64,000 bases of DNA from a virus. Its lineage: Duplodnaviria; Caudoviricetes. The notes below the pieces were generated by a model, which was given only the letters and a program-made list of their open reading frames with translations, had not been told where the DNA came from and did no database searches. The stretch's first letter is position 1, and the number at the start of each line of letters is the position of its first letter. A program made the position numbers and the translations under genes. Positions 7,308-24,063 of this stretch are shown piece by piece. The stretch is from positions 1 through 64,000 of the IMG/VR virus record IMGVR_UViG_3300036942_000148, one strand, 5' to 3'.

Positions 7308-8015
7308 TTGAAAGCAGACATTTTTGATATAGAAAAGTTTATAGAAATAAATGATTGTCCACAGGTTACCAATCCTGTGATGTTCGACCAAGGTAGCCAA
7401 CCAACAACAGATGGGTTATTTTCTTATGAGTTATTTGGGACTCCATCTAGTTATGATAGGAAGACTATCTATGGATATATTGATTTGAATGGGAGGTTTT
7501 TACACCCAGTAGTTTACCGAGCTATAATTAGCATGAATAGATCAATACGAGATTTAATAGCTGGAAAATCATTATTTAAAGTAGAAGATGGAAATTTAGT
7601 AGAAGCTGAAGAAGGTGAAGCCCAATCAGGAACTGGTATCGATTTCCTTTATACTAAGTGGTACAGTCTAGAATTTGAAAAAACTGACAGTGCCAAGAGG
7701 AACGCCAAGATTGAGATGATAGAAAATATCAAAAGAGATGAAGCATTTATCAATAAGCACCTTGTTCTTCCTGCTTTTTATAGAGATGTTAACATGAGTC
7801 AAGAAGATTTCGGCAGAGTGGGAATGGATGAAGTAAATGGAATGTACGCTAAGTTGATAAACTATAGTTCTTCTCTGGATAGTAACAATTCTTTTTTTGA
7901 CTACCCTAATAATTCTACTAAAAATAGAATTCAACAGACTATCAATGAAATTTATGATTACATGTTAAATACACTAGGCAAGAAAAAAGGTTACATCAAA
8001 GATAAATTAATGAGT
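7308..8015 (+). CDS. rpoC: multisubunit RNAP beta' N-terminal subunit, exon 1
   Basis: DGLFSYELFG, YGYIDL, VLPAFYRD, GKKKGYIKDKLMS; no Cys zinc-binding domain. Confidence 0.9.
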
Positions 8016-8400
8016 AAAATAACTATTTTATAGTTAGCTCCTTCTATTCTGTAAGGGAGTAGAATGAATTCTGTGAATTGCTGGAACCTCCTAAAGCTCT
8101 AGAAACTACAAAGAAACTTGTAAAAGTAAACTTGAACGTTGAGAAATCAGAAAAAATTCTAGAGATAAGATATGGTTAAATCCTAAGTCTTTTTACAATG
8201 GACAATCAGCATCTAAGGATCTTCAATATGAAGATCAAAGTTCAACGACTATCCTATTAAGGAGTACAATTTATTTAAATATCAATAAATTGGAAGTGCA
8301 GAAATGACCTTATTAAAAGGGCATATGATATAGTCTAATTATTTAACTGACTCGAAAGAGATTCAGAAATTTATAAATAATTTATAAATTTTATAATAGT
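8016..8400 (+). ncRNA. group I intron beta'-I1 (ORF-less; boundary ambiguous by 1 nt)
   Basis: P1 GAGU/GCUC; GAATTGCTGGAA, AATCAGCA, GTTCAACGACTA, GATATAGTC; AGTAAA repeated at both junctions. Confidence 0.85.
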
Positions 8401-8891
8401 AAATCAATTGATCATGCTACACGGTCAGTAATATCAGCATCCAACTACTCTACAGAGACTTGGGAGAAACAGGAAACACCTTTTAGGTACACTGGAGTTC
8501 CCCTCTCTCAACTGATAGTTCTGTTCAGACCGTTCTTTGTCAGGGAAATTAAAAACTTTATGGAAGCTAAACTACAAGATAAATCACATATAAATATAGC
8601 GGAAAACGCCAAAGAAGACGCTGAAGTTAAAAAGTACGAACTGAACGACCCACTAAAAGACTTCTCTCCAAAGAAGATAAAAAAGATACTGGATCTTTTC
8701 ATAGAGTCACCCAACAAGAGGTTCAGCAGGGTCTACTTGAGAGCTATAAATCCCGATGGAGACGAAGTAGAAGTTCCTTGCAAGTTCTACCATAATAACT
8801 TGGAGAGGGATTTCACGATAACCGACTTGATATTCATTGCTGCAAAAAGAATAGTACCAGATAAACATGTATACCTAACGAGATTCCCCGT
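8401..8891 (+). CDS. rpoC: RNAP beta'N exon 2
   Basis: KSIDHATRSVISA (GKRVDYSGRSVI equivalent) through YLTRFP. Confidence 0.88.
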
Positions 8892-9128
8892 TAATAACAT
8901 AGCGGTTTAAGTTAGTAATAACTTAAGATATTTCTCCTTAATTGCTGAAAGTTCTGTAAGATAATCAGCAGTAAATCTTATTGGTTTTCAATAAGAATAT
9001 TCAACGACTAATATGTACATTATAATTATAATGGAAATAGGAGACATCCAATTGGATGAAGATATAGTCTAATCTATATAGTAATATATAGTAATTATGA
9101 AATTAAAGAATTCATATAAATATAAATG
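8892..9128 (+). ncRNA. group I intron beta'-I2 (ORF-less)
   Basis: P1 CCGU/GCGG; AATTGCTGAAA, AATCAGCAG, TTCAACGACTA, GATATAGTC; omega-G 9128; splice gives TRFPVESHQSIYP. Confidence 0.9.
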
Positions 9129-9366
9129 AGAATCTCATCAGTCTATATATCCAAGCAAAATCAAGATACTCACTACTAAAAAGACAACTAAGCAAGAAAT
9201 AGGTAGTGAAGTATTCGGTAATTACCCAGTTATTCACTTGGATTACCCAACTATTTATGCAGACAATATAGATCAGAGCGAAGATAGAGACGAAGAAATA
9301 ATGCCATTGGAGAACACGTTTAAAGACACAGTCAGTATTAATCACGTGTTTTTAGAAGCTTTGGGT
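9129..9366 (+). CDS. rpoC: RNAP beta'N exon 3 (absent from ORF track)
   Basis: ESHQSIYPSKIKIL...FKDTVSINHVFLEALG. Confidence 0.88.
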
Positions 9367-9589
9367 GAATATCTCTGCCCAAATAAAACTATTTTAATTG
9401 CTTAAATGTCCTTAATAATGGATAATAAGCAGCAAATCTTATTATATATTAATAAGAATGTTCAACGACTAATATGTACATTAGATATCTAATGGAAAAA
9501 GATAGCAGATTTTAATCTGAAGATATAGTCTAGGCTTATAGGAAACTATAAGGGAATAGGAAATTAATAATTCCTATCAATAAAAATCA
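9367..9589 (+). ncRNA. group I intron beta'-I3 (ORF-less; terminal A)
   Basis: P1 UUUGGGU/GCCCAAA; AATTGCTT, AATAAGCAG, GTTCAACGACTA, GATATAGTC; frame requires exon 4 to start at GGA 9590. Confidence 0.88.
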
Positions 9590-9604
9590 GGAGATTTTGA
9601 CGGT
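9590..9604 (+). CDS. rpoC: RNAP beta'N micro-exon 4 (GDFDG of catalytic motif)
   Basis: GGA GAT TTT GAC GGT between two intron cores; completes LGGDFDGD. Confidence 0.88.
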
Positions 9605-9846
9605 TTTTTGAGAGCCGTCAAATTAAAAATAAATTTCTTTAACTGCTGGAAACTTTATTAAACAATCAGCAGCGATTCTTATTACATTACAATAATAAGA
9701 GCGTTCAACGACTATTAGTATATTGGAAATCCAATAGAAATAAGAGATATGTATACGTATACGGTATACATAAAGATATAGTCTGATCTCTATAGAAATA
9801 TAGAGCTTAATGATATAAGTTTAATGAACTTATATAAACATGAATG
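9605..9846 (+). ncRNA. group I intron beta'-I4 (ORF-less)
   Basis: P1 UUUGACGGU/GCCGUCAAA; AACTGCTGGAAA, AATCAGCAG, GTTCAACGACTA, GATATAGTC; omega-G 9846. Confidence 0.92.
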
Positions 9847-10005
9847 GATCAACTATTCCTTAGAGGAGTCTTCACTCAAGAAGCCAACCAAGAAGCAGAA
9901 GAAATTATCAACTCTAAGAAACACCTTTTAGATGGAAGTGGACATAGTAACAGGGAAACAGGAAACGAATTCATACAATCAATGTTTACTCTTACTAAAG
10001 AATAA
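9847..10005 (+). CDS. rpoC: RNAP beta'N exon 5 (absent from ORF track)
   Basis: DQLFLRGVFTQEANQEAEE...FTLTKE*; spliced gene is 1611 nt, 536 aa. Confidence 0.88.
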   Translation, partial: DQLFLRGVFTQEANQEAEEIINSKKHLLDGSGHSNRETGNEFIQSMFTLTKE

Positions 10006-10736: not shown

Positions 10737-12593
10737 GTGATTTATTTGGCAGTAGTTAATCTAAATAATATTTCATTAGATGATTACCAAGAAATTAAAG
10801 ATAATATTGAAAATGATATAGTTTCTGATATTTCATCTAGGAATCAAGCAATGAAAGTGATAGCAGGAGAATATGAGATCGAGATGCCCAAATCTCAGTT
10901 ATTGATAAACCTAATTCTTTTAAAACCATTTTATATATTTGACAGGGAGATTAATATTGATTTTATATATACGGATACTAAGATGACGGAGGACATGTTG
11001 TCAGATTATTTCAATGAACTCATCGACCATTTCAAAGATGAGGATTATAAGGTTCTTAATGCCACTATATCAGAGATAATAGAGAACTTAGCAGATCTTT
11101 CGGGTGAAGTTAATGTTAACGTAGGTAACAGTATTTCTTTGTACAGCATTATGGAACTTGCAAATGAAAATGAGAGATTCAATGAGTTATTAAATTATAA
11201 AATCCCTGATAACCTCCAATTAAAAGATATTGAAAGAGATTTAGAAGATAAGAGAAAAGAGTTAGTGGAAATACTTTCTACCAATGATAATGAGATGAAG
11301 AACTATCTCAACTCAGAAACTGGGATTAATACCAAGCAGTTGGCTCAAGTTATTATGAATGTAGGTCTTAAACCTAATTTACATGGAAAAGTAATACCTA
11401 CTCCTATTGATAGTAACTTTCTACAGGGATTACGCCACGTTAGAGATTTTTATATTAACGCTATTTCAGGTAGGAAAGCATTGATAACTAATTTTAGTAA
11501 TGTCAGGTCCAGTGGATACCTAACTAGGCAACTCCTGCTATTACTCTCAGATACTTTCCTTAGTGAAGATGTGGAAGATTGTGGAACTAGTCATACTGTA
11601 AAAGTGAAGATTAAGAATAAGGATATACTAGGGAGATTAGAAGGAAGGCATTATGTAGAAGATAATGAGATTAAAACAATCGACGCTGATGATGAGAGTT
11701 TAGTTAACGAAACCATTAAACTTAGGTCACCAGAGACTTGCGCTATAAAAGATGGAGTGTGTAAGACTTGTTACGGTAAAAATCTTGCTAAATTAAATAA
11801 AGATATTCATATTGGAATTTTAGCAGTTCTCACTCTTACCAACCAGCTAACTCAAAGGTTATTATCTTCTAAACACTTATTGCAGACTAATTCTAAAGAA
11901 CTTAATTTCCATAATAAATTTAAGGAATATTTCTTAGTCAATAAGAACATCATAACATTCGAAAGCGATAAGAAAAATACTTTAGTCATTGATAGGGATA
12001 ATTTAAGATTGGATGATGAAAACTCTATGCTTTATATTGATGAGATGACTATAAAAGAAAGAGGGAAAGAGTTCAATATAGATCTTCCCACTAAATTATA
12101 TCTGACCGATGAAATGGTAGAAAAAGTGGAGAACTACGAAGTGGATGATGTTTCTTATATACCAACTAAAGTATTAAAAAATGGAACTGATTTGTTCTCT
12201 TTCATCATGCAAAATAGGGGATTGACTAAACCATTGACTATGATTCAAGATCTAATAGGAAAAAATGACCATTTAGGATTCAAGACTATTAACTCTATCA
12301 CACAGAAATTCTTAGAGTTACTAGGAGAAAGTGGAATACACTTACAATCAGTCCACGCAGAGTTAATATTAAAAGAGTTACTAAGATCCAAAGATGATAT
12401 TTTAAGTAAGCCAGATTTCAGTGAAGATAGTGAACCAGAGTATAAAATACTAAGAGTGAAGAAAGCTTTATTGAAATCACCTAGTATCACTAAAAGTCTT
12501 TCATTTGAAAGACACAAGCAACAATTACTGGATCCTGATACCTACATTAAGAACGAGGAGTCGATATACGACTTCATGTTTGGGAGGGATTAA
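10737..12593 (+). CDS. rpoC: multisubunit RNAP beta' C-terminal subunit
   Basis: SNFLQGL, GRKAL..SGYLTRQL (bridge helix), DCG, RSPETC..GVCKTCYG, IGILA..QLTQRLLSSKH (trigger loop). Confidence 0.92.
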   Translation: MIYLAVVNLNNISLDDYQEIKDNIENDIVSDISSRNQAMKVIAGEYEIEMPKSQLLINLILLKPFYIFDREINIDFIYTDTKMTEDMLSDYFNELIDHFKDEDYKVLNATISEIIENLADLSGEVNVNVGNSISLYSIMELANENERFNELLNYKIPDNLQLKDIERDLEDKRKELVEILSTNDNEMKNYLNSETGINTKQLAQVIMNVGLKPNLHGKVIPTPIDSNFLQGLRHVRDFYINAISGRKALITNFSNVRSSGYLTRQLLLLLSDTFLSEDVEDCGTSHTVKVKIKNKDILGRLEGRHYVEDNEIKTIDADDESLVNETIKLRSPETCAIKDGVCKTCYGKNLAKLNKDIHIGILAVLTLTNQLTQRLLSSKHLLQTNSKELNFHNKFKEYFLVNKNIITFESDKKNTLVIDRDNLRLDDENSMLYIDEMTIKERGKEFNIDLPTKLYLTDEMVEKVENYEVDDVSYIPTKVLKNGTDLFSFIMQNRGLTKPLTMIQDLIGKNDHLGFKTINSITQKFLELLGESGIHLQSVHAELILKELLRSKDDILSKPDFSEDSEPEYKILRVKKALLKSPSITKSLSFERHKQQLLDPDTYIKNEESIYDFMFGRD

Positions 12594-20404: not shown

Positions 20405-20542
20405 GGTTGCCGTAAAGGCTCTAATCATAATCAGTTGTCGCATTTAAGACTCTAATTTAATTAGCAGGTGGACGGCGTATTCCACATCTCTTTATCCAAC
20501 CATTAAGGTAGCGATAGTTGCCTGTTCTATCCTCTGCTAATT
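20405..20542 (-). ncRNA. candidate novel structured small RNA
   Basis: Begins at a late-promoter +1; AAUUAGCAG/CUGCUAAUU closing stem, three internal hairpins, two repeated AUUAGA-hairpin-AAC units; no ORF. Confidence 0.55.
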
Positions 20543-20998: not shown

Positions 20999-21245
20999 CG
21001 TTTTTCTTTATATAAGATCGTTAATCTTACATCATAAAGCTATATATTTCTATATAGACGAGACTATATCAAAATCCTTAAATTAAGGATTCCCTTTATT
21101 TCTAATAGACTTCTATTATAATATAGTCGTTGAATGTTCTTATTATTAAATTATAATAAGATCCACTGCTTATCATCCAATTAAGGAGTTTCAAGCAATT
21201 AAAAGGGTTTAGACATACTATCACTAGTATGAATCACTAAAATTC
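20999..21245 (-). ncRNA. group I intron beta-I2 (ORF-less)
   Basis: AATTGCTTGAAA, GATAAGCAG, TTCAACGACTA, GATATAGTC; P9.0 GU/AC before omega-G 20999. Confidence 0.9.
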
Positions 21246-22434
21246 ATGTAAATTTATCGCCGACTTCCATATAATCTTTATAAGTTATATAATAGACAAT
21301 CAAAATACCATTGACATCCTGACCATTTATCTTATCTTGATCAGTCTGCTTGACAGTAGGAAGATTCATCTTACTTCTAGGAATCCCTTCTTTTTCAGCC
21401 ATTTCAATTCTCTTATCAGTTCTCTCTTTAAATGTTTTAATTAGTTTTTGAATTGATTTAGACATCTCTTCTAAAGGTCTATTATAATATATTTCAACGT
21501 CAGAAACTGTTCCAGTGTACTTACTCTTTATTATATTTTGACCCATTTTATCTATCTCTTCTTCAAACTCTTGACCGAGTTTATCGAGTAGTTCATTAGC
21601 TTCATCTTCATCAAAGGCACTTTCAAACACTAATAGTGGGTCTCCATTCTTAACTTTAGCACCTTTCTCAGTATAATCCTGAATCACTGTACTAGCACCT
21701 AAGTTTATCTCCTTCTTCATGGTAATTTCAGTAGCCATGTCTTCAGAAAGGTTTCTAGTAATCATAGCACTATCTTCATAGGTTCTATCATTGCTATGGA
21801 TAGCTACCTTAGCGAGAGTTCCACCCACTAATTCAGAATCTTTCTTACCACCTTTAAAGAACTTGTCATTTTTAGATAATACATCATTCTTATCGAACTT
21901 TTCTCCTTCTTTTACCGTTGAGGTGTGTTGATTATTTGTATAAAATCCTGAGTTTGAATTCTTCCCCAAGACAGGACTTAAATCGATAAGGTCTTTTTCT
22001 CCATTATCGTATTTAACAATCATCAATTGATTTTTTTCATCTATTTTTTCAACTTTACCACTATCTTTAGCTTTAAATACAAAATCATCATTCAATACTT
22101 GTGGCATAGTCTTCTCTACTCCACTACCAACTAATAACTTATCCTGCTTATCAGTATTGATAATATGCTTAGATTGGATGGAAGTCATCTGAATTCTCTG
22201 AGCATCAGATCTAGTAGCAGTGAAACTATTGAACATTTCTGAAGGAGCTAATATATCAGCAGCAGTTAGATCCTCTACAGATTTACTAGTATCAATTATT
22301 CCTCTAGTATTTTCAATAGAAGCATTATAACTCATTTGTCTAACATTACCAACTTTACCACTATCAGGAGTATTAATACTAAACGTACCAAACATACTCT
22401 CATCATAAGCTTTTTGTTCTAATGTAAATGATCT
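21246..22434 (-). CDS. rpoB: RNAP beta exon 2
   Basis: RSFTLEQKAYDESM, TPDSGKVG, DAQRIQM..QSKH, TYEDS, VGDK. Confidence 0.92.
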
Positions 22435-22673: not shown

Positions 22674-24047
22674 TTAGTTTAAAAAATCAAATTCCTCAAA
22701 ATAAGATGAATTATTTTTTAGATAGTATTTATTTTCATTTAAAACTTCATTTTTATTTGGATTGAAATAATATAAATCATATATATCTATTACTGCTGGA
22801 TTTATTTTATTATCATCTAAAAATAAATTATCTATTATTTTATTTATATTCTCTTTATTCTTATAAGATATTCTTATAAAATGATAATCATTATCTTCAA
22901 CCCATTTATTTTTAGTCCAATCTCTTTTAATACTATCTTTGCTAGTAAATAAACATTTTTCAAAATGTTGAGCACCATCGTATTCAATAATAATATTATT
23001 ATTAATTAATAAATCCATTGATAGGGTATTTATATATTTTAAGTCTTCAAATCCTTTCTCTGTCTCAAAATCTATATTTTTATTTTCTAAAATGTCAATT
23101 ATTGTTAACATTGCTTTTGAAACAGGAGTTTTACAAATTGGGCAACGAGTTCCTTTATTTAAAAATAAATTAGGAGTTGGATACCAAATATGTCCACACT
23201 CTTTATGTTTTGTTTTAACTCCTGTGCGTGTATTATAATATTCTCCCATTATTTCATATCCTTCTGAAACTTCATTTACTTCTTCGATATACATTTCAGT
23301 ATTTTTATGAAGTTTTCCAGAACATCTTGGACAACCAAATGCATCTGTTTTATTTCTTTGAGCCCAATAATGAACCGTTTTAGGATATCCTTTCCACTCA
23401 AATCCACATACTTGACATTGTAGAAAACATTCTTCTCTATCTTTTGTATAATTATCTATTATTTTAATACGATTTTTAGTAGAATTATCTAATCTTTCTT
23501 GCATAACTTCTTCTGTAATAGTTATTGTCTCTCGACAAACAGTACAAGTTTCTTTGAATTTATCTTGATTTCTTGATCGTATAAATTCAGATGGTAAAAT
23601 TTCAAACTTACTATCACAAACATCATGTAATAATTCTACTTTTGTTTTTCCATCAACAAATTTTGAAAGTAAAGTATAATCATTATCATATAATTCTTTT
23701 ATTCTTGTTTTAAATATCTTTTCAGTTAATTTATGATAATCTTTACCTCTTGTATCTATATTATAATCATTTAATCTTCTTTGAATTAAAGCAATAGATA
23801 CATTAAAATGATTGGCTACTTCTTTTTGAGTCATTTCTTCATCTTTATATAATCTTTTTAATTCATCTTTTGGAATATGCTTTTTATTTGATCGTGTTTT
23901 TATATTATATTTTTTCATCTTTCTTCCAATTGTACTTGATCCACAATCAAAATAATTAGCAAGTTCTTTTTGAGTCATTTCTTCATCTTTATATAATCTT
24001 TTTAATTCATCTTTTGGAATTTTGATTTTTTTAACCATATTTGTCAC
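22674..24047 (-). CDS. intron-encoded homing endonuclease (HTH repeats, Zn ribbons, Vsr/PD-(D/E)xK-like domain)
   Basis: Two HTH units, several CxxC/HxxC motifs, DLLI..IIIEYDGAQH..RD..KN..IRISY. Confidence 0.82.
   Translation of the reverse strand: MTNMVKKIKIPKDELKRLYKDEEMTQKELANYFDCGSSTIGRKMKKYNIKTRSNKKHIPKDELKRLYKDEEMTQKEVANHFNVSIALIQRRLNDYNIDTRGKDYHKLTEKIFKTRIKELYDNDYTLLSKFVDGKTKVELLHDVCDSKFEILPSEFIRSRNQDKFKETCTVCRETITITEEVMQERLDNSTKNRIKIIDNYTKDREECFLQCQVCGFEWKGYPKTVHYWAQRNKTDAFGCPRCSGKLHKNTEMYIEEVNEVSEGYEIMGEYYNTRTGVKTKHKECGHIWYPTPNLFLNKGTRCPICKTPVSKAMLTIIDILENKNIDFETEKGFEDLKYINTLSMDLLINNNIIIEYDGAQHFEKCLFTSKDSIKRDWTKNKWVEDNDYHFIRISYKNKENINKIIDNLFLDDNKINPAVIDIYDLYYFNPNKNEVLNENKYYLKNNSSYFEEFDFLN
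23820..24020. repeat. about 57-bp identical direct repeat at 144-bp spacing within the endonuclease gene
   Basis: Both copies encode IPKDELKRLYKDEEMTQKE. Confidence 0.85.
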
Positions 24048-24063
24048 ATCCTCTAATTTTTAT

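Follow-up and report, generated by a model that had tools for sequence, protein, structure and literature searches.

The β′ N-terminal gene and its introns

The window, the 64,000-nucleotide stretch analyzed here, covers the first 64 kb of an IMG/VR viral contig of 78.6 kb (completeness estimate of about 31%), which belongs to an AR9/PBS1-like jumbo phage. At 10800-12590 it encodes a 597-aa protein with ~40% identity to its counterpart in Bacillus phages AR9 and PBS1, the non-virion RNA polymerase β′ C-terminal subunit (40% identity to AR9 g154, with 96% of the length covered), and more distant matches came from jumbo phages of Staphylococcus, Yersinia, and Listeria. The β′ N-terminal gene of the non-virion RNA polymerase occupies 7308-10005 and carries four group I introns, I1 to I4. 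Its spliced product contains GGDFDGDQL, the DFDGD catalytic loop, and belongs to the AR9 g154-like set. The annotation of AR9 gives its RNA polymerase genes as joins of 6 and 3 pieces, so an intron-rich polymerase gene is nothing unusual in the AR9/PBS1 group; the AR9 gene for the non-virion β′ C-terminal subunit is uninterrupted.

In the Rfam search of the window, six group I introns exceeded the threshold and a seventh, I1, fell short of it. Scans with the two P7-strand motifs bring the total to eight, and the rest of the contig has none. The features of I3 and the neighboring exons are collected in Table 1.

Table 1 Features of intron I3 and of the adjoining part of the β′ N-terminal gene (window positions).
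Feature	Position	Strand	Remarks
Exon 3 of the β′ N-terminal gene	9129-9366	+	Translation, homologue alignment; ends ...EALG, codon GGU
Intron I3, register A	9367-9589	+	Group I, IA2-like, no ORF, no P2; RF00028
P1 5′ strand, exon side	9360-9366	+	UUUGGGU; U9366 in U·G wobble with G9377
P10 guide-sequence bases	9371-9376	+	Pair with exon 4 bases 9590-9595
P1 guide-sequence bases GCCCAAA	9377-9383	+	Pair with 9360-9366
P3	9389-9395 / 9499-9505	+	Rfam alignment, fold
P4	9399-9404 / 9426-9431	+	Rfam alignment, fold
P5	9407-9411 / 9420-9424	+	Rfam alignment, fold
P6-P6a	9432-9461	+	Rfam alignment, fold
P7 5′ strand	9465-9471	+	ACGACUA motif; contains G9467
Extra IA-type hairpin, P7.1/7.2-like	9479-9494 (9479-9484/9489-9494)	+	Fold; between P7 and P3 3′ strand
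P8 hairpin	9506-9519	+	Fold
P7 3′ strand UAGUCU	9526-9531	+	Contains C9530
J7/9 (AGG)	9532-9534	+	5′ half of P9.0: G9533, G9534
P9 hairpin	9535-9552	+	Rfam alignment, fold
P9.1 hairpin, 7 bp	9556-9577	+	Fold
3′ tail, 12 nt	9578-9589	+	Downstream of P9.1
P9.0 3′ half, U9587 and C9588	9587-9588	+	Only pyrimidine pair in the 3′ tail
A9589, last intron base in register A (ω-A)	9589	+	Enumeration, P9.0 register
Exon 4, 15-nt micro-exon GDFDG	9590-9604	+	Translation; G9590 is ω-G in register B
Intron I4	9605-9846	+	RF00028, 75.2 bits; canonical: U9604 at -1, G9846 at ω; no ORF
Exon 5, DQLFLRG..., end of the β′ N-terminal gene	9847-10005	+	Translation

I3 interrupts the gene between ...EALG and GDFDG, with the Gly codon GGU on its 5′ side and a second Gly codon, GGA, on its 3′ side. 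Joining 9130-9366, 9590-9604, and 9847-10005 gives ...SINHVFLEALG GDFDG DQLFLRGVFTQEAN..., and seven homologues align without gaps across the junction (AALGADFDGDQV, SLNGDFDGDT, KSLGGDYDG, and others). Two relatives lack the intron. The ENA contig L005 (75% protein identity), without I1, I3, and I4, reads E-A-L-G-G-D-F-D-G-D uninterrupted in its DNA. The Logan contig L008 from shale-gas run X4 (97% identity) likewise reads EALGGDFDG without a break; it is without I2 and I3 and, as an I2-less allele, bears out the 5′ junction of exon 3. The ligated sequence is thus fixed by the I3-less alleles together with the gap-free alignment to the seven homologues.

Comparison of the spliced exons 2-4 of the window with L008 (247 codons) gave a pS of 0.285, a pN of 0.010, and a pN/pS of 0.036; by this measure, the β′ N-terminal gene is under strong purifying selection. 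At such a ratio, the interrupted gene is functional, and I3 must therefore be removed in a way that gives exactly the EALG/GDFDG junction. A search for RNA runs containing the stretch returned none, and it is from this selection that we infer the removal of I3 from the transcript.

Exon 4 is fully paired in the predicted structures: its first 6 nt (9590-9595) belong to P10 of I3 and the remaining 9 nt (9596-9604) to P1 of I4. It is shorter than the exons described between group I introns, which measure 23 nt in Twort and 34 nt in Coxiella. A splice from U9366 directly to G9847 would leave it out without a frameshift, with the loss of GDFDG. At the end of this exon, where the window has the ORF-less I4, L008 carries a different intron (L008 925-1162, after DFDG) starting an ORF, MGKKLTQKQAEEKV..., which probably encodes a homing endonuclease.

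Three further observations concern the minus strand of the window. A skipping-rope RNA (RF02924, 61 bits) lies at 20460-20541, just 3′ of the stop codon of the β-like gene. The first intron of that gene holds a 461-aa ORF (22674-24059) upstream of the ribozyme core, which may be a putative homing endonuclease. At the 5′ end of intron IB (21240-21262), the stablest P1-like hairpin, AUGAAU/AUUCAU, pairs U(-1) with A, not G, while an alternative 3-bp P1 retains the U·G wobble.

Anatomy and splice ends of I3

I3 matches RF00028 with 66.6 bits (gathering score of 50; model positions 1-253, spanning P1 to P9; window 9329-9552), and its fold has a z-score of -3.7. The P7.1/P7.2-type extra hairpin and core motifs common to Staphylococcus and Bacillus phage introns place it with the IA2 introns. 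The P7 motifs, ACGACUA and UAGUCU, are the same in all eight introns of the window, including G9467-C9530, which we take to be the G-binding pair by analogy with Tetrahymena G264-C311; the original prediction that this pair is retained thus stands. The J5/4 of I3 is UAAU, and all the window introns have (C/U)AAU or UGAU at this place. By these sequence tests, and with the joint rule on its ends set aside, I3 is a group I intron.

That rule asks for a U at position -1 and a G at the last intron base, ω. Group I introns are defined and annotated by U(-1) and ω-G, which are central to the accepted mechanism, and ω-G is close to universal among them. All 5′ ends in 9300-9419 were enumerated against all 3′ ends in 9480-9599. 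Only two pairs, (U9366, A9589) and (G9367, G9590), yield a product of homologue length, EALGGDFDGDQL. The first, register A, would excise 9367-9589 and end the intron in ω-A; the second, register B, would excise 9368-9590 and put a G at -1. Both give the identical mRNA, a point already made in the original prediction, and differ only in the ends of the excised intron. The original prediction had also noted that keeping GDFDG in frame after a cut at U9366 makes G9590 the start of exon 4 and A9589 the last intron base. For the U9366 site, the enumeration agrees, and joining U9366 past G9590 does shift the frame, one base being lost in that join.

Canonical ends were rejected for I3, since each U/G pair alters the length of the protein or creates a stop. 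The in-frame pairs all use G9591 and delete or replace catalytic-loop residues (e.g., EAL/DFDG), against all homologues. A reading with a recoded UGA (U + GA) was rejected as well; it needs a 5′ site at U9360 and costs two residues. I3 fails the joint rule, either with A at ω or with G at -1, and this anomaly of its ends is confirmed at the level of sequence.

The same difficulty was met in I1 of the same gene (8010-8410), where U(-1) and ω-G together are also impossible without altering the product. AGTAAA is repeated at both ends of I1, and L005, whose allele is I1-less, has ATGAGTAAATCG here. The ends of I1 could be (G8014, G8399), (U8015, U8400), or one of several (A,A) pairs, or else a canonical pair at the cost of two extra residues (IK), and the P1 and P9.0 assignments of I1 are too uncertain to set its register. 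Across the 3′ part of I1 and into exon 2, for its first ~40 nt, L008 is identical to the window (window 8300-8441; L008 1-250; first difference at 8442), and 28% of the synonymous sites differ between the exons of the window and those of L008. It looks as if the intron was transferred recently and its flank co-converted, though I1 is ORF-less.

Could the odd ends of I3 come from a sequence error, with a G missing or miscalled at 9589-9591 and a true intron end of G? Over 9062-9715, a 654-nt Logan contig of run X1 (depth of 12.5) is identical to the window, with zero differences and zero gaps. As the assembly is a second one and its sequence the same over this stretch, the ends of I3 are no assembler artefact, and the assembly error at 9586-9591 that would have undone the original prediction did not appear. 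X1 alone covers the I3 ends, which run X2 does not include, and it is probably the source sample, so the two assemblies would stem from one sample; such an error keeps a slight chance on that account. However, a miscount of GG versus GGG cannot create the A, and the odd ends of I1 and of a wastewater phage intron described below (L027/L028) were each found in two samples, so that such ends are real in this group. We regard a sequence error as very improbable.

The two ends carry structural signals of their own. At the 5′ end, the 7-bp P1 foreseen in the original prediction was found (U9360-U9366 with G9377-A9383), and a U·G wobble marks the 5′ site only when cleavage falls after U9366. U9376, next to this helix, can pair either with G9590, as part of P10, or with G9367, as an extension of P1.

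At the 3′ end, the P9.0 pairing was compared among the introns. The last two J7/9 bases pair with ω-2 and ω-1 in I0, I2, I4, IA, and IB (AU/AU or GU/AC), in the L005 orthologue of I2, and in the L027 intron in its ω-G register, while IC and the L021 intron show a single mismatch, at ω-2. The base at ω-1 pairs with the middle J7/9 base in all nine related introns having a P9 hairpin. This pair at ω-1 also covaries, being A-U or G-C, with a compensatory change from AU/AU to GU/AC between I2 and its L005 orthologue. In I3, both pairs (G9533-C9588 and G9534·U9587) form only if ω is A9589; with ω at G9590, the ω-1 pair would be G·A. The pattern that the original prediction had described in six other introns, with one mismatch (in IC), and its GG/UC pairing for I3 in the same register were both recovered.

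The P10 of I3 is unusually complete. G9590-U9595 pair with A9371-U9376 in 6/6 contiguous positions abutting P1; the chance of a 6-bp P10 is 0.002 (0.2% of the window hexamers), and contiguous P10 pairing from +1 amounts to 0 in I2, I4, L021, and the L005 orthologue of I2. The length of the tail downstream of P9.1, 12 nt like that of I2 and I4, was tried as a marker of A9589 and dropped as uninformative, the alignment setting C9588 opposite the ω-G of I2. Positions 9583-9598 can also fold into a local 6-bp hairpin (AAAAUC/GAUUUU, loop AGGA, -2.7 kcal/mol); the 3′ splice site could sit in its loop, and the hairpin competes with P9.0, P10, and P1 of I4.

Introns at the same site in relatives

A profile of the seven homologues retrieved 13 IMG/VR loci and 150 representative proteins. 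No intact DxDGD was found in one ORF for 34 of these 150 representative β′ N-terminal relatives (P0011-P0160). Their ORFs break after LG, GAD/GGD, GADY/GGDY, DFD, or DFDG, at no fewer than five points, and breaks at so many places make the catalytic loop a hot spot for introns or insertions. An intron at the I3 position itself is present in four lineages (L019-L021, L029, L027/L028, and L026).

Two of these lineages have canonical ends. The L019-L021 intron (RF00028, 89 bits) lies between GGU and GGA and has a 7-bp P1 ending in U·G and a terminal G. The L029 intron lies between GGU and GCA, with a guide (GCCCAU/AUGGGU) that includes the U·G wobble and resembles the guide sequence of I3, and it also ends in G. 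Both share with I3 the codon boundary, the wobble on the same U, and the intron core family. Unlike I3, they have a terminal G and different peripheral helices, and L021 is without a contiguous P10.

The third lineage points the other way. L027 and L028 are wastewater phage contigs from two ENA samples, identical to each other, with the intron at L027 3859-4260. The ends that their flanks permit are limited to (U,U), (G,G), and (G,A), and the ω-G with both P9.0 pairs formed fits (G,G); in the stable P1, G(-1) is paired with C and there is no wobble, and J5/4 is UCUU, without the usual AA. This intron is best read as G(-1)...ω-G, which makes it a candidate natural group I intron with G at -1. 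As in I3, U(-1) with ω-G is impossible, the first intron base is G, and the same two registers can be drawn. In contrast to I3, whose signals indicate the opposite, its ω-G, P9.0, G-C pair in P1, and J5/4 indicate the shifted register. Of the fourth lineage, L026, only the 5′ part is available, as the contig ends inside the intron; its Gly codon, GGA, precludes U(-1), and its guide CUCC pairs with GGAG. Read in this way, both registers would seem to exist in nature at the I3 site.

Other copies of I3 were sought in several collections. There was no near match among GenBank phages, the distant mode giving core matches only, and three exact patterns found nothing in IMG/VR. A metagenome scan with exon 2 gave only one relative among the matches listed (33%), and a scan of genome contigs contained none. 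One contig of run X3 apparently connects 9359 directly with 9626, bypassing I3. The Rfam scan of L005-L008 (E ≤ 0.01) returned nothing, though a clear I2 orthologue with both P7 motifs lies at L005 1395-1662; this blank is a miss of the tool or its filter, and the introns of L005-L008 were read by eye and by motif.

Weighing of the two registers

Of all the readings, the one in which I3 ends in A9589 is the single likeliest, at slightly less than an even chance. Under register A, I3 would be a working, self-splicing group I intron of the IA2-like kind within the (N/G)(A/G)DFDGD loop codons. Free guanosine, bound in the intact P7 site, would attack after U9366, marked by the U9366·G9377 wobble in the 7-bp P1, and the released exon would then attack after A9589, which P9.0 (G9533-C9588 and G9534·U9587) would position instead of a terminal G. 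The gap-free 6-bp P10 would also hold A9589 and would lock G9590 in a helix, barring it from acting as ω. I3 would probably have derived from a canonical intron at the same site by a change of its terminal G to A, and its exons would be expected to ligate more slowly or with more errors than those of its neighbors. That ω-A could be a rate-limiting step for RNA polymerase synthesis, as proposed in the original prediction, is speculation.

Several features favor register A. The U·G wobble falls exactly at U9366, P9.0 fits ω at 9589 only, and the canonical U...G introns of L019-L021 and L029 lie at the same codon boundary. The P1 design of I3 resembles the L029/L021 type and not the all-Watson-Crick type of L026 and L027, the A-rich J5/4 (UAAU) is kept as in canonical members of the family, and the exceptional P10 would fit compensation for a missing ω-G. 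On the other side, the G at the first intron base would have to be a coincidence (1/9 of the canonical family members start with G), and G9590, adjoining A9589, would compete for the G site and, joined to U9366, shift the frame. In addition, the L027/L028 intron suggests that the family can tolerate G at -1, ω-G is close to universal, and no intron of the family is known to lack it. This tally of the registers is rough and depends almost wholly on the assumed rarity of a working ω-A.

Register B, with cleavage after G9367 (paired with U9376 atop the U·G pair), ω-G at G9590, and G at -1, is nearly as likely, a serious though still doubtful contender. It keeps ω-G, the most conserved rule, and calls for no coincidence, -1 and ω both being G by construction. 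Since the L027/L028 intron at the same site is best read as (G,G), G(-1) is probably tolerated in the family, and the codon and guide of L026 point in the same direction; I3, L027, and possibly I1 with (G8014, G8399) would all come under one rule, in which ω is always G and -1 can be G. However, the wobble of I3 lies one base upstream of the G9367 site, and G9367·U9376 would be a reversed wobble, unlike the G-C of L026 and L027. Register B would also bring a G·A mismatch at ω-1 in P9.0, which none of the nine relatives shows, and the P1 of I3 has the design of the canonical register A introns of L029 and L021. The original prediction of ω-A was right that the anomaly is real, but the G9367 site, which it gave as a caveat, is a stronger rival than it implied, given L027/L028.

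Splicing could also be faulty or mixed. Most transcripts would then join U9366 to the base after G9590, giving an mRNA one base short, frameshifted, and without DFDGD, with a minority joined correctly in either register, and I3 would be a recently damaged intron that lowers β′ output. Both canonical signals are indeed present and adjacent, and I3 looks recent, being absent from L005, L008, and apparently the X3 contig; in model ribozymes, changing ω from G to A strongly impairs exon ligation. We consider this improbable all the same, as the gene is under strong purifying selection, the sequence of I3 is the population consensus at ~12x depth, and the P10 on G9590 and the P9.0 placing A9589 look adapted rather than decayed.

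Taken over the group, AR9-like phages may splice group I introns accurately without canonical ends, I3 with ω-A by way of P9.0 and P10, and L027 and perhaps I1 with G(-1); we put this forward tentatively, as something a little short of an even prospect. If true, flanking helices could replace either end rule in nature, even inside an essential catalytic motif. In either register, an essential gene under strong purifying selection requires the removal of an intron that cannot obey both end rules. The relatives are natural controls at one site, with canonical introns, shifted-register introns, and intron-less alleles, and the I3 site bears on how far P9.0 and P10 can substitute for ω-G or how far G(-1) is tolerated. 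For annotation, intron finders and gene callers that require U/G ends would frameshift this polymerase.

The only natural exception to ω-G that we know of is Coxiella Cbu.L1917, where ω-A slows splicing according to the original prediction. G at -1 has, to our knowledge, not been described for a group I intron, which weighs against register B. The Coxiella precedent named in the original prediction does exist: the Coxiella burnetii 23S rRNA intron Cbu.L1917 is reported without a canonical ω-G (Raghavan et al. 2007, by its title in the reference list of PMC11270868). As far as that entry tells, it is the nearest precedent for ω-A, like I3 a natural self-splicing group I intron. It adjoins a 34-nt exon flanked by a second group I intron, much as I3 adjoins the 15-nt exon 4 and then I4. 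Cbu.L1917 is, however, a bacterial rRNA intron of another subgroup, whereas I3 lies in a phage protein gene and its ω-A is deduced from sequence.

The closest phage parallel is ORF142 of the Staphylococcus phage Twort, whose intron ends are reportedly canonical. A 23-nt exon separates its introns I2 and I3, and exon skipping has been observed (Landthaler and Shub 1999, as relayed in PMC10136302); by that account, it likewise has several similar IA2 introns in one gene and a very short exon. The host gene differs from the β′ N-terminal gene that carries I3. A natural departure from U(-1) is found in one class of bacterial tRNA group I introns, which have C at -1 (Williams 2020, bioRxiv 10.1101/2020.01.27.920355), but the base is C and not G, and the hosts are tRNA genes.
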